Part shown: positions 6,759-11,178 of the stretch, one piece after another
How the letters are laid out: each line of letters starts with the position of its first letter
How positions within the stretch are numbered: the stretch's first letter is position 1
IMG/VR virus record: IMGVR_UViG_3300045988_142641
Source of the DNA: a virus
Taxonomy: Duplodnaviria; Heunggongvirae; Uroviricota; Caudoviricetes
Reading direction: 5' to 3' (one strand)
DNA: 35,258 nucleotides
The notes under the pieces: model-generated
Told to the model about the DNA's origin: nothing
The model's input: only the letters and a program-made list of their open reading frames with translations
Database searches by the model: none
Position numbers and translations under genes: made by a program

Positions 6759-6944
6759 CCGTTTAACTCCGTGGTTAATGGGTGCAACTATTTTCTGTTG
6801 TGCAGAGCATGAGACGCTATTTGACCTGGCTGGTCAGGGGATGAAACAACAGACAAAGAAAAGGCGGGTAATCCGCCAGCCTGCCATGATTTGCACTCAC
6901 TCATTTTCCAACTGACAATTTACATAGCCCAAACGCTATCAAAT

Positions 6945-7017
6945 CTGACAGTCTGCTTTGAGCGAATAACGGACATTGGGAACAGCATTCTGTGTGAATC
7001 AAGGGGGAGCAGGTCAC
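6945..7017. repeat. island-1 boundary repeat R1 (about 82% identical to 9914-9986)
   Basis: Shared blocks aacggacatt, aacagcattctgtgtgaatca and gggagcaggtca in the same order and spacing as in R2. Confidence 0.7.
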
Positions 7018-7285
7018 TGACTATGAACACCTCATCATTGACATGAAGCAACAATTTTCAATGCTTGGTATGTACAACATTTTCATGTCATCCTCATTGA
7101 TGTAGAATCGTCTATGATTTTTGCTTACGTGAAATATATGGAAATTCTCAGGTTGAATGTTAATGAAATAAACCATCTAAAGATTTTCAAATGCAACTTG
7201 AACTGTTATTGGTGTGCACACTGAATTCTAATTAAATATATGGGTATTGAGTAAAATATAAAACATTGATTAATAAGGAGCGTAT

Positions 7286-8155
7286 ATGATTTTTGATGAT
7301 ATTGATGGTTATTACGATTATCGGGAACTTCAATCCATTGCTGATGAAAAAAGAGTGCTGAATAAAGTCAATGCTTTTCGTCAGGAATTCACCGCTCTTG
7401 CTAGAGAATGGTCTCCTGAACGTAATTCTCAATGGATTTGCCGTATCTATTTCTGTACTAAAATGATTCTAAATGCAACTGTCGTTCTAAAACAGGCTGA
7501 ATTCGCCGAAGAAAAAAACCTGAGGGCAGCCATTCCTTACTTTCACTATTATGCTATGCTCTCAATCTTACGTTGTGTGGTCCTAACTTTGCCGACTGAA
7601 GACTGGGATAATGAGGATATTCTGAGTATCTCTCATAAAAAAGCGAGAGACAAAACCAGAGAATGGTTGGCTCGATATGATAGAGCACTGGCCACACGAT
7701 TTGATGATTTCTTCCTGACCCTTAAATCAAACAGAGAATTACTATCATATAAGGCGCCTGCCAGTGCAGACCGAAACATTAGCAACCAAGATGAGGTAAT
7801 ATATTTCTGTACTTTACTAGCAGAAGTCGCGCAATTTAACACGGCTATATTGCATAACGCTGTTGTTAGACACGCATCAGAGGATGATTTCGTTGTGTTC
7901 GATCATGACATGGCCCGCATTTATAACGTTGAGATTGAAGGGAAACGTTTCTATGATAGCGAGGACAGATATCGTCTGGATTATCTGAGACGAAAAGGCA
8001 ATATTCCTCACAGCATTCACATGACCATGACAGAGGGGCAGACTGAAGATTTCATTGGTGCCTGGGATGCTCATGACGATGATGTCGATAACGAAGAAAG
8101 CCGTTTTTACTCTGGCTCACCTTCATCATGGCAGGACATATTCGATATTCCCTGA
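7286..8155 (+). CDS. hypothetical protein (289 aa), AT-rich cargo gene
   Basis: Strong SD (aaggag, 5-nt spacer, ATG); AT-rich codon usage unlike the phage backbone; acidic C-terminus; no motif I recognise. Confidence 0.65.
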   Translation: MIFDDIDGYYDYRELQSIADEKRVLNKVNAFRQEFTALAREWSPERNSQWICRIYFCTKMILNATVVLKQAEFAEEKNLRAAIPYFHYYAMLSILRCVVLTLPTEDWDNEDILSISHKKARDKTREWLARYDRALATRFDDFFLTLKSNRELLSYKAPASADRNISNQDEVIYFCTLLAEVAQFNTAILHNAVVRHASEDDFVVFDHDMARIYNVEIEGKRFYDSEDRYRLDYLRRKGNIPHSIHMTMTEGQTEDFIGAWDAHDDDVDNEESRFYSGSPSSWQDIFDIP

Positions 8156-8274
8156 ATCATAAAAATAATTGCCAATCAATAAAACACCATACCTTTTCAA
8201 TTTTAATGGTGTAATCAGGTCGATAACCCCCTTGATGTGACCGGCTACCCGTTATCAACACTAAGTGCTGTTCG

Positions 8275-8610
8275 CTACTTCCGTTTTAGGCACAGGGCTG
8301 CTATTGCAGCCCTGACAACCTTAGACTCAATCGATTCAGAGATCTCTAACGCATCATCTACTTCAATGCCCAGATAACGGACCGTGCTTTCCAGTTTCTT
8401 ATGGCCTAACAGAAATTGGATCACTCGTAGATTCTTGGTTTTCTTGTAGATGAGGCAAGGTTTTGTTCTTCTCATGGAATGTGTGCTGTAAAGCGAATCT
8501 TCGAGACCAAGCTTTTCTACCCACCCATGAAAGATTCGGTTGTATTGCCGGGTTGATATGTGCCGATTAGTTCCGATCCGAGATCGGAACAAGAAGTCTT
8601 TACTATGCAA
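8275..8610 (-). pseudogene. tyrosine recombinase/integrase C-terminal remnant (111 aa)
   Basis: Contains HSMRRT (HxxR), LLGH and a downstream Y in RYLG, i.e. the C-terminal catalytic motifs of a tyrosine recombinase, but lacks the N-terminal half and box I Arg. The upstream space is occupied by the 3' end of the 379-aa ORF. Confidence 0.6.
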
Positions 8611-8616
8611 ATTAAA

Positions 8617-8634
8617 AGGCTGTATACACAGCCT
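8617..8634 (-). terminator. hairpin downstream of the 379-aa ORF
   Basis: aggctgt-atac-acagcct (7-bp stem), followed on the minus strand by tttaatttg. Confidence 0.4.
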
Positions 8635-9785: not shown

Positions 9786-9877
9786 AAATTCAGTTTGTAT
9801 GAAATATTATCGCATAAAGATACTGATGAGCCAGTAATATAAATAGAAAATATTTTTTGTGGTTCAGCGACCTAGAC

Positions 9878-9986
9878 GTCCGCTACTGGCACAGAGCGGA
9901 CGATATCACTGAGCTGAAGGTCCGCTGAGAGCGAGGAACGGACATTACTAACAGCATTCTGTGTGAATCACCAGGGAGCAGGTCAG
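9878..9986. repeat. island-1 repeat R2: hairpin (9878-9901) plus 73-bp unit (9914-9986)
   Basis: gtccgct-actggcacag-agcggac hairpin, 21/24 identical to 11094-11117; followed by a unit about 82% identical to R1 (6945-7017). Confidence 0.7.
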
Positions 9987-10111
9987 CGCCACTACTCTAT
10001 ATAATCGCTAACGATGACAAGTATAATTATATAAGTCTTTGCCCTTAGCTTTTGGATAAAATTGTTGAAGTTTCACGAAAATAATGATAAACAAAAACAG
10101 TAGCAATAATT

Positions 10112-11056
10112 ATGGATTTAATTATGGAATGGAGATTTTTAGGTTCTCTATCAGAGGCCAGGAAATCTGGCTGTAGCGGAGTTTATCTTATTGTCCATAA
10201 AGGACTTTTCAGTCGTGTGGTTTACGTTGGGGTAAGTTGTAATGTAGGTAGAAGGATAACCGAACATTACGACGGTTATCTTAGAGGAAATCGAACAATT
10301 TACGACGCTGGTCACGACGAAGACGTTTATCGCTTCATGTCAGCTTATAAAATTCATAACCACACAAAATACTATCAAGCCTTGGCGAATGATTATAAGA
10401 TATGGGCATCTACCACAATGTATTCTGATTTGCCGAAAAACATGCTAGCAAAAAGCCAAACCTTTGATACTGATTGGCAGAGCATTGCATTAGAAAAATA
10501 TATTCCTCAACTGGTAGTATGGGCCCTTCCAATGGCAAAGTACTGTTATTTAAATGCAAGCAGGATTGAAAGTGTAATCCAATCAAAGCTCATTAAATCT
10601 TTTGATTTGAGAGGTTTTTTTAATATAAAGCAATTAAGCATATTGGGTAAAATTGAATATCCCTATATGGAAAAGGTCAAAGTTTTCATTATTAACACAC
10701 CTGATTTAGACCCGGCATCCCAGCTTATTTTTAGCAATCTATATAACAAAAAAACTGATAACAACTTCTGTAAAGAGTTCCGTTCACAATTTAAAAGCGA
10801 GATTTTTCAGAGGGAAAGTGAAACTCAGAGAAAGCGAACTATCAGGGAGCATAAGGTATCTCTTTATGAAAATTATGGCAAGCCTTGGACTTTAAAGGAA
10901 ATGGAAAAACTTAGAGTCATGCTTGTTGATTTTGATTTGTCCCCGATAGAAATATCTGAGTATCTAGGAAGAGAGCCGCGCTCTATATCTAAAAAAATAA
11001 GCGAAAATGATAAAGTTACTAATTATAAATGGCGAGAGAGCGTCGGCTGGTTGTGA
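10112..11056 (+). CDS. GIY-YIG nuclease-domain protein (314 aa), possible free-standing homing endonuclease or defence nuclease
   Basis: N-terminus SGVYLIVHKGLFSRVVYVGVSCNVGRRITEHYDG fits the GIY...YIG...R...EH pattern of GIY-YIG nucleases (UvrC/I-TevI family); C-terminal region is HTH-like (SPIEISEYLGREPRSISKKI). Start codon uncertain (10112 or 10124). Confidence 0.65.
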   Translation: MDLIMEWRFLGSLSEARKSGCSGVYLIVHKGLFSRVVYVGVSCNVGRRITEHYDGYLRGNRTIYDAGHDEDVYRFMSAYKIHNHTKYYQALANDYKIWASTTMYSDLPKNMLAKSQTFDTDWQSIALEKYIPQLVVWALPMAKYCYLNASRIESVIQSKLIKSFDLRGFFNIKQLSILGKIEYPYMEKVKVFIINTPDLDPASQLIFSNLYNKKTDNNFCKEFRSQFKSEIFQRESETQRKRTIREHKVSLYENYGKPWTLKEMEKLRVMLVDFDLSPIEISEYLGREPRSISKKISENDKVTNYKWRESVGWL

Positions 11057-11092
11057 CGTTACGTTTTGATTGAAATAACCCCCATTTTGCAA

Positions 11093-11143
11093 AGTCCGCT
11101 CTTGGCACAGAACGGACTGTCAGATTAGGCTTTACTCTGTGCC
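11093..11143. repeat. island-1 repeat R3 with nested inverted repeats; probable bidirectional terminator between the GIY-YIG ORF and G
   Basis: agtccg...cggact stem (11093-11118) is homologous to the R2 hairpin; a second inverted repeat ggcacaga (11104-11111) / tctgtgcc (11136-11143). Confidence 0.55.
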
Positions 11144-11178
11144 ATAGATATGTAAGCTCACACCAGAGCTCATACAAC

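Follow-up and report, generated by a model that had tools for sequence, protein, structure and literature searches.

A putative integron-like cassette array with paired 24-bp sites in the Z/fun slot of a P2-like prophage

The Z/fun island, its sites and its junctions

The DNA analyzed here, a window of 35,258 nt (IMG/VR record IMGVR_UViG_3300045988_142641), is a P2-like prophage adjoining cyaR, with the 3' part of the CyaR/RyeE small RNA at positions 1-51 on the plus strand (Rfam, 66.8 bits). We focus on the island at 6759-11178, the P2 Z/fun slot, in which three gene cassettes, the remnant of a 200-aa tyrosine recombinase (int200) and a set of 24-bp palindromic sites termed hp1 and hp2 lie together. 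The slot is bounded by the genes for tail sheath FI (5568-6758, minus strand) on the left and tail fibre assembly G (11179-11706, minus strand) on the right, both of which were matched in near-identical annotated P2-like phages and prophages. The GC content is 0.34-0.43 in the island vs 0.54-0.60 in the flanks. A reading made from the sequence alone had placed an AT-rich island with four open reading frames (ORFs) at this position, and the GC contrast, the two flanking genes and all four ORFs were found as described. A base-for-base identical island occurs in many Escherichia coli assemblies, and the 289-aa protein encoded by the first cassette is indexed in 307 blocks. Designations beginning with L refer to compared loci, contigs or phages.

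Cassette A carries the 289-aa ORF on the plus strand (7286-8155), which combines a HEPN fold with a conserved C-terminal domain. Downstream follows a 111-aa tyrosine-recombinase ORF on the minus strand (8275-8610; Pfam Phage_integrase PF00589, 1.2e-11) and then cassette B, a 379-aa ORF on the same strand (8646-9785) with an N-terminal CxxC...H...C motif and a helical body, which belongs to phrog_12525 and travels with the recombinase remnant; a terminator-like hairpin lies between the two genes (8617-8634, minus strand). Cassette C encodes a 314-aa protein of the GIY-YIG nuclease family with a possible C-terminal helix-turn-helix (10112-11056, plus strand). Each cassette has its own AT-rich upstream region.

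The sites hp1 (GTCCGCT-nn-TGGCAC-nn-AGCGGAC) and hp2 (GTCCGCT-nn-GAGCGA-nn-AGCGGAC) are both 24 bp long and consist of two 7-bp inverted arms, GTCCGCT/AGCGGAC, around a 2+6+2-bp centre, the spacer being of two classes. The pattern matches six times in the window compared to 0.93 expected, four of the matches being the island sites, and 0 of 100 shuffles reached six. All sites described in the following are given on the plus strand. On the FI side, the slot border is formed by an hp2-type site with one mismatch per arm (6951-6974; GTCTGCT TT GAGCGA AT AACGGAC), and on the G side by an hp1 site (11094-11117; GTCCGCT CT TGGCAC AG AACGGAC). An inter-cassette doublet consists of hp1 at 9878-9901 (GTCCGCT AC TGGCAC AG AGCGGAC), which is the left member of the direct repeat around the GIY-YIG cassette, and hp2 at 9920-9943 (GTCCGCT GA GAGCGA GG AACGGAC). 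Cassette A is joined to the recombinase remnant by a decayed hp1-type site (8278-8314), in which the outer arm and a spacer with one mutation (CTTCCGTTTT AGGCAC AG) are fused to the stem-loop CAGGGCTGC-TATT-GCAGCCCTG. The order of the island is hp2, 289-aa gene, decayed hp1-type site, recombinase remnant fused to the 379-aa gene, hp1-hp2 doublet, GIY-YIG gene and hp1.

Both hp2 sites are followed by a conserved 42-nt leader (ATTGGGAACAGCATTCTGTGTGAATCA...GGGAGCAGGTCA; 6975-7016 and 9944-9985, plus strand), which forms part of a 72-nt direct repeat with 82% identity (6945-7016 / 9914-9985) and is also present in L129 and L203. Such a leader, about 42 nt long (ATTnnnAACAGCATTCTGTGTGAATCAnnnGGGAGCAGGTCA), comes after hp2 in only some of the cassettes (the two window copies and L129 4177-4218), and could be an accessory recombinase-binding or regulatory sequence. 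The sequence-only reading had described the ORFs as bracketed by related repeats. The 72-nt repeat and the 24-nt palindromic sites bear this out, and the repeats appear to be more than scars, namely members of a conserved family of putative recombination sites tied to the recombinase fragment that the same reading had noticed. Outside the border sites, the backbone 9-mer AATCTGACA abuts the left site (6942-6950, plus strand) and is a perfect inverted copy of TGTCAGATT at 11118-11126 (plus strand). The same 9-mers flank the slot in the P2-like phages L128-L130 and in L001, and in the P2-like phages inspected the slot has AATCTGACA-hp2 at its FI border and hp1-TGTCAGATT at its G border, irrespective of the cargo. 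Judging from this 9-nt inverted repeat, one long palindrome may have formed the empty slot in the ancestor; no empty P2 slot was found for comparison with it.

A megablast search against 5,426 complete E. coli genomes returned no record covering at least 80% of the island, and pieces of the island were found in other contexts. The comparison across related prophages that the sequence-only reading had proposed for defining cassette boundaries revealed that homology ends cluster at the 24-bp sites: of the 41 distinct internal BLAST end points, 27 are no more than 25 nt away from a site, compared to 2.7 expected (binomial 2e-22, with end points that are not fully independent). The remaining ones mostly fall at the recombinase truncation point or at differences within the recombinase gene. 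P2-like phage homology to the FI flank stops at 6965-6979 and P2-backbone homology restarts at 11091-11095, and the breakpoints at the decayed hp1-type site lie at 8256-8291.

The pieces of the island recur in diverse surroundings. The P2-like prophage L001 contains a 417-aa ORF and the unit of recombinase remnant and 379-aa gene, without the GIY-YIG gene, and in the lambdoid prophage L002 the same unit stands between DUF4365 and a dCTP deaminase gene. In Qin-like prophages (L003), a complete 200-aa recombinase and PD-T7-1 accompany the GIY-YIG gene, which is 98.9% identical there. Cassette C is also found in an island with type I restriction-modification and DarTG genes (L004) and beside an e14-like remnant (L005), being 98.9-99.2% identical across these lambdoid prophages and islands. 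The block of 289-aa gene, remnant and 379-aa gene occurs at a non-phage chromosomal site (L203), where a DUF4145 cassette comes after it. In Serratia, a 73%-identical homologue of the 289-aa protein is encoded in the other P2 hotspot, between gpA and portal, adjoining a SIR2 gene. Between these two genes lies a 23-nt variant site, GTCCGCTCCCACACAGAGCGGAC (L207/L208 7025-7047, in a P2-like prophage of the 186 type), so related sites may serve the other P2 hotspot too.

Empty and filled sites could be aligned base by base. In L001, the 379-aa unit and the G flank meet at a single hp1 (...gaactagac-hp1-tgtcagattagg...), and in the window the same flanks enclose hp1, the 18-nt sequence gatatcactgagctgaag, hp2, the GIY-YIG gene ending in ...ttttgcaaa and a second hp1. 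Lambdoid backbones provide another pair, with L007 empty and L003 filled with the GIY-YIG cassette. The insertion is exact: the cassette is flanked by two hp1 copies, exactly one 24-bp site is duplicated, and the four unrelated right flanks of the cassette each begin exactly at the outer arm of hp1. That the island grew by several successive insertions rather than as one operon, as had been suggested from the mixed orientations and the recombinase fragment, is upheld by these alignments and by the occurrence of each unit alone elsewhere. Judged from the sequence comparisons, it is well supported that the cassettes are discrete, site-bounded and independently mobile and that the Z/fun slot is defined by the hp2/hp1 pair.

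The int200 recombinase and its sites

The recombinase remnant (8275-8625, minus strand) corresponds to residues 100-199 of the 200-aa int200 protein with 94% identity (tblastn and translation; Pfam, NCBIfam). The first catalytic Arg region and the stop codon are missing, and this copy is predicted to be inactive. Through a deletion, the 3' end of the 379-aa cassette became fused to recombinase codon 100, and the hp2-type site that precedes complete int200 genes was lost. Full-length copies were found in L003, L006 and L029, and an int200 protein of E. coli IPCEC31 has the accession WP_113419545. The full-length proteins comprise little beyond the catalytic domain (PF00589, 1.5e-18; motifs LRGCDL, HSMRRT and LGH...TVRY) and contain the R..HxxR..Y catalytic residues of tyrosine recombinases, and only the generic PF00589 model was matched. 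The family includes at least 8,000 clusters at E <= 1e-10, with 77-96% identity across Escherichia, Proteus, Providencia, Pantoea, Idiomarina, Cycloclasticus and others. Among solved structures, none is close to int200 in sequence.

Both ends of the int200 gene bear half-degenerate copies of the sites. The 3' site follows directly after the stop codon (TAA-GGTTGT-CAGGGCTGC-AACA-GCAGCCCTG-TGCCAnnAGCGGAC); its right part consists of the hp1 spacer and the outer arm, and the inner arm is degenerate. It is kept in 17 of 18 distinct 3' flanks, and the sequence beyond it is unrelated among the flanks. The 5' site is of the hp2 type and lies 45-60 nt before the ATG, again with the inner arm degenerate and the outer arm and spacer conserved. 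The outer arms mark the point where unrelated DNA begins in E. coli, in Proteus and in marine contigs, and Proteus loci with an identical int200 protein show the same pattern in several different neighbourhoods. In homologues with 56-64% identity the stem-loop structure after the stop codon is kept despite a changed stem sequence, and in the 61-64% group the half-site GCCAnnAGCGGA follows the stem-loop. As int200 is enclosed by a degenerate hp1 and a degenerate hp2 site, the gene occupies the position of the 18-nt spacer in a doublet, between two cassettes. A complete array of this kind is present in L003: hp2, 326-aa ORF, degenerate hp1, int200, degenerate hp2, PD-T7-1, hp1, hp2, GIY-YIG gene, hp1. 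Furthermore, a 53%-identical int200 homologue is located among many sites of the same family in an alphaproteobacterial metagenome-assembled genome (MAG; L122 6207-6839), which supports the partnership of protein and site and also keeps a reading of the sites as dispersed repeats alive there. We regard the physical tie between the int200 family and the hp sites as well supported by these comparisons, and infer int200 to be the enzyme behind the exchange.

In marine Gammaproteobacteria (Cycloclasticus-type contigs, L209-L214 6001-6603), an 84%-identical int200 is located between arsenic- and copper-resistance modules of an element resembling an integrative and conjugative element; the system is therefore not limited to defence cargo. 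E. coli K-12 intK/ydfW was considered as a possible int200 and rejected, as there is no homology; the dicC-hokD slot of K-12 contains only relic sites and no int200. These relic sites in the Qin prophage of MG1655 (L222), GTCCGCTTTGTGCCAGGAGCAGCC (2982-3005) and TTCCGCTTCTTGCTCTTAGCGGAC (3973-3996), bracket part of ydfV and flxA, which suggests that flxA sits in an old cassette.

Site arrays and cassette cargo across genomes

To describe the sites across Enterobacterales loci, we used 63 hp1 and 46 hp2 sites, each in a different context. Their 7-bp arms hardly vary, with positions 1-6 and 19-24 partly fixed by the selection rule, and positions 7 and 18, which are not fixed by it, are at least 95% conserved. 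Pairing of the positions between arms and spacer is at chance level (positions 8/17, 28/63 vs 26.4 in shuffles; positions 9/16, 25/63 vs 22.6), and single-strand folding of the border sites is weak (z -1.5 and +0.2). No site scored as an intrinsic terminator, T runs are missing, and the main cassette ORF lies on either strand relative to the sites (22 vs 16). Rfam searches with gathering and E-value thresholds gave no relevant match in the island and eight other loci. Intrinsic terminators were ruled out by the missing T runs and the ORFs in either orientation, and structured hairpins by the absent covariation and a stability that varies from site to site. A sigma-54 promoter in the TGGCAC spacer was rejected because the downstream element does not fit by eye. 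The core site of a tyrosine recombinase, as in loxP, FRT or dif, consists of two inverted 7-9-bp arms around a 6-bp asymmetric spacer. As the arms-plus-spacer layout of hp1 and hp2 matches such core sites, we assume that they are double-stranded recombination core sites rather than hairpins or terminators, and the two spacer classes on identical arms would act as heterospecific sites.

The order of the sites was analyzed in 40 non-redundant arrays from Enterobacterales loci. Consecutive sites form 45 hp2..cassette..hp1 pairs and 24 hp1-hp2 pairs at 39-42 nt from start to start, next to eight hp2..hp2 pairs, seven hp1..hp1 pairs and only one long hp1..hp2 interval, and site orientation within an array is almost always shared. 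The resulting pattern is hp2-cassette-hp1, about 18 nt, hp2-cassette-hp1. In Erwinia mediterraneensis (L086), three consecutive doublets follow each other at about 1.7 kb. In E. coli the doublet region is present in 1031 of 5426 genomes, at a median of one place per carrying genome, and the places inspected are borders of variable, horizontally shared segments. An exact-pattern hp1 scan found at least 120 loci, and the matches listed include Pseudomonas, Amphritea and many Xanthobacteraceae/Hyphomicrobiales MAGs. In these MAGs (L008-L127), the same 7-bp arms form a high-copy intergenic repeat resembling repetitive extragenic palindromic (REP) sequences, with the extra spacers TGACCC and CGGGGGT. 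The MAG L122 has eight site copies in 8 kb (1-8000), and the repeats often lie right after genes whose products end in ...ADEVIE.

The 38 distinct hp2..hp1 cassettes are 0.5-6 kb long, with a median of 2 kb. Their defence cargo includes Old, AriA-like, PtuA/GajA-like, HEC-01A, HEC-08, PD-T7-1, mad3, AbiLi and HEPN_LA2681, and the match scores of sibling cassettes are 3.7e-157 for PD-T7-1, 1e-173 for HEC-08, 5e-127 for dCTP deaminase and 2.7e-209 for Old.

The 289-aa protein has the four-helix up-down arrangement of the HEPN fold, and its invariant residues include R96, H117, R150, E151 and Y155; no Pfam HEPN family was matched. Unlike the HEPN proteins AbiU2, AbiV, HepS and the C-terminal domain of AbiA, which act in abortive infection, it continues into an additional conserved domain of about 90 aa at the C-terminus. 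The 379-aa family is mostly found in Enterobacterales, its CxxC...H...C motif is invariant or near-invariant, and the structure model, with a predicted local distance difference test score of 88, gave no convincing match to a known fold. Searches of Pfam, NCBIfam, PADLOC and PDB returned nothing for either protein, and PHROGs placed only the 379-aa protein (phrog_12525, a family of unknown function). The assignment of the 314-aa protein to GIY-YIG nucleases holds at the level of the family. The protein alone matches PF01541 weakly (E 0.017, below the Pfam cutoff), and 17 of 31 relatives match PF01541, the best one at 1.4e-7. The sequence shows the motifs of a GIY-YIG nuclease (GVYLIV...VVYVGVS...RRITEH), with G23, Y38 and G40 invariant and Y25, R48 and H52 conserved in at least 90% of the family, which is small (63 representative clusters) and often adjoins PD-T7-1. 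PADLOC returned only matches at E 0.0075-0.015 for the 314-aa protein (PDC-S14 and UzuA) and none for the recombinase remnant.

Context and fold make it most likely that each cassette encodes a single-protein anti-phage or abortive-infection effector, because the cassettes are placed in two recognised P2 defence hotspots, among validated defence cassettes. The proposed types would be a HEPN-type RNase-like protein, a Zn-ribbon/helical protein and a GIY-YIG nuclease, and the 289-aa protein is a candidate abortive-infection effector. The suggestion that the 289-aa and 379-aa proteins are anti-phage candidates thus stays plausible, with validated or catalogued defence genes in sibling cassettes, although neither matches a PADLOC entry.

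Proposed mechanism, related systems and alternative explanations

The slot between G and FI has been reported to be enriched in defence systems with fast turnover, which recur in unrelated mobile elements and cryptic islands (Vassallo 2022, PMC9519451; Rousset 2022; Moura de Sousa 2026, PMC13586616), in agreement with the earlier remark that this slot hosts defence genes in P2-like phages (PMC9519451, PMC13586616). In P2/P4 hotspots, the exchange of defence genes outpaces the divergence of core genes, and near-identical systems occur in unrelated mobile elements; the defence systems carry no mobilisation functions and the recombination process is called unknown (PMC13586616). The hotspot papers offer no mechanism, and the words hairpin and terminator are missing from the text of the paper quoted.

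We consider it probable that the island is a decayed, integron-like cassette array that was assembled in the Z/fun slot by int200 and the hp sites. The recombinase gene, lying between its own hp2-type and hp1-type sites, would recombine sites sharing a spacer, and the spacer classes would enforce specificity. A circular cassette (18 nt-hp2-gene(s)-hp1) could integrate at any hp1 or hp2, and an hp2...hp1 segment could be swapped for another, as in engineered recombinase-mediated cassette exchange (RMCE). As the sites are co-oriented, excision and integration would be favoured over inversion. The three island cassettes would have arrived separately, because each unit occurs alone in other contexts. 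A later deletion would have removed the first 99 recombinase codons together with the hp2 site, so that further movement would need a recombinase in trans. A wider proposal, which we regard as possible rather than probable, is that an undescribed integron-like system in Gammaproteobacteria, with relatives in Alphaproteobacteria, moves promoter-bearing cassettes by insertion, excision and exchange, and that it makes the Z/fun and Qin-like dicC-hokD slots hotspots. Its parts would be a 200-aa recombinase with a catalytic domain only and 24-bp sites with identical arms and at least two heterospecific spacers; its range would cover P2-like phages, lambdoid prophages and genomic islands, many of the cassettes being anti-phage genes. 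Searches of open-access text by site sequence, arm sequence and concept found no paper with the hp site sequences or such a system.

As in integrons, a tyrosine recombinase gene is located next to a primary site that joins many cassettes, and cassettes of 0.5-6 kb, anti-phage cargo included, are arrayed between imperfect-palindrome sites of one orientation; the island itself resembles the recombinase-less arrays known as clusters of attC sites lacking integron-integrases (CALINs). However, int200 has 200 aa, no core-binding domain and no IntI-specific insertion, whereas IntI-type proteins have about 320 aa, and the remnant reached only 17.8-18 bits with the NCBIfam integron-integrase models (cutoffs 265 and 435), which sets it apart from IntI. 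The hp sites also differ from attC, as they have no RYYYAAC/GTTRRRY cores and no sign of selection for single-strand folding. Two spacer classes stand in a fixed doublet, primary sites are found at both the 5' and the 3' end of int200, and the cassettes seem to bring their own promoters and have genes in either orientation. The pdif modules of Acinetobacter plasmids are thought to use host XerC/XerD and dif-like 11-6-11 sites. They share the architecture of accessory modules bounded by pairs of short inverted-arm Xer-type core sites, with exact junctions in many contexts, but here a dedicated small recombinase is present and the GTCCGCT arms are, by eye, unrelated to dif; the best NCBIfam XerC score of 40.6 bits (cutoff 335) likewise argues against an Xer/dif system. 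FimB/FimE-type invertases, which flip a short promoter segment between inverted repeats, are similar in size to int200; the NCBIfam invertase models gave only 14-17 bits for the recombinase studied here (cutoffs about 221). Engineered RMCE (loxP/lox2272, FRT/F3) also relies on identical arms with different spacers, which flank a segment and allow its clean exchange; this is an artificial design, whereas the island would represent a natural two-spacer counterpart.

The closest precedent in the slot itself is the sopE cassette (Mirold 2001), a 1.2-kb moron with constant flanks in the equivalent G-FI slot of a P2-like phage and in lambdoid prophages. It has moved between P2-like and lambdoid Salmonella phages, and homologous recombination was proposed (PMC7380047, PMC4042001). 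However, the slot of SopEPhi (L221 25968-28139) contains a serine DNA-invertase fragment and no hp-type site, by which sopE was ruled out as part of the same system. Therefore, at least two mechanisms seem to populate the G-FI slot in P2-like phages.

Several points weigh against the array reading and the defence role of its cargo. The island recombinase is truncated, the catalytic role of int200 is drawn from its association with the sites, and under strict criteria a canonical site lies within 8 kb of only about 40% of the int200 loci in IMG/VR, although the 35 sites in 802 kb around them are still a much higher density than roughly one locus per E. coli genome. For some cassettes (L004, L005), there is no int200 in the vicinity. 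The 289-aa protein has R150-x4-Y155 and no obvious Rx4-6H HEPN motif, and none of the 289-aa, 379-aa and 314-aa proteins has a significant PADLOC 2.0 match. The cassette cargo also includes ArsB, FecCD/TonB iron uptake, MFS transporters, dehydrogenases and an autotransporter, so a defence role of the three island proteins is not guaranteed. Furthermore, Red/RecET-type enzymes could also use conserved stretches as short as 24-72 nt for homologous recombination.

It is conceivable on this last ground that the cassettes were swapped by homologous recombination (RecA or Red/RecET) at short moron boundaries, with the palindromes having regulatory or structural roles and the recombinase fragment being unrelated debris of a decayed mobile element. 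The longer shared boundary stretches, the 72-nt repeat and the doublet of about 66 nt, could serve such enzymes, lambdoid prophages with cassettes encode functions of this kind, for example the annotated exonuclease in L003, and many cassettes have no intact int200 nearby. We nevertheless assume that this is rather unlikely. The arms and the two spacer classes are the same to the base pair in different orders and even different classes, in surroundings that differ, homologous recombination would not require the strict co-oriented hp2..hp1 order, and an insertion duplicates exactly one 24-bp site. Moreover, both site types are present in half-degenerate form at the ends of the int200 gene, with variable DNA starting at the outer arm, and the sopE precedent is, with its slot devoid of hp sites, a different case.

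The abundance of the sites in Xanthobacteraceae/Hyphomicrobiales MAGs, often just after gene ends, and the ordinary-looking transport and metabolic genes that they flank in Erwiniaceae would fit selfish intergenic repeats of the REP type or of the miniature inverted-repeat transposable element (MITE) type, maybe mobilised by int200, whose overlap with breakpoints would only reflect that both are intergenic. This seems quite improbable, as E. coli carriers have the doublet at a median of one place, at the borders of variable shared segments, and as the empty/filled pairs show the gain of a whole cassette plus one site copy, not of the doublet alone. In addition, the doublet is found only between cassettes, always in the same order and orientation. 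A single multi-gene defence system or operon of four ORFs that is conserved in the phage lineage is hardly compatible with the data, and we consider it very improbable. In E. coli, Serratia, Cronobacter and Kosakonia the accession numbers of the 289-aa and 379-aa genes are indeed consecutive, and the two genes stand together also at the non-phage site L203. But the orientations are mixed, recombination-type sites and separate upstream regions lie between the genes, and the genes occur apart: the 289-aa homologue with SIR2, the 379-aa homologue with DUF4365 or the 417-aa ORF, and the GIY-YIG gene with PD-T7-1 or alone, away from the other island genes.

If the int200/hp-site mechanism is true, one class of hotspot would gain a concrete and testable basis, consisting of a pair of 24-bp sites, a candidate recombinase and natural empty/filled pairs, with circular cassettes and spacer-specific recombination as predictions. 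As a rule for discovery, any hp2-to-hp1 segment would then be a mobile accessory cassette, which flags the 289-aa, 379-aa and GIY-YIG proteins as anti-phage candidates. A compact recombinase with natural heterospecific sites could also aid the engineering of cassette exchange.

The window contains another AT-rich island, in the tin/old slot between replication and portal genes (25751-29038, minus strand), in which the window site scan found no hp-type sites. Besides a 388-aa ORF without a PADLOC match, it encodes two paralogous Ser/Thr kinases of the PD-T4-6/mad6-like type (PADLOC 1.7e-54 and 1.7e-52).

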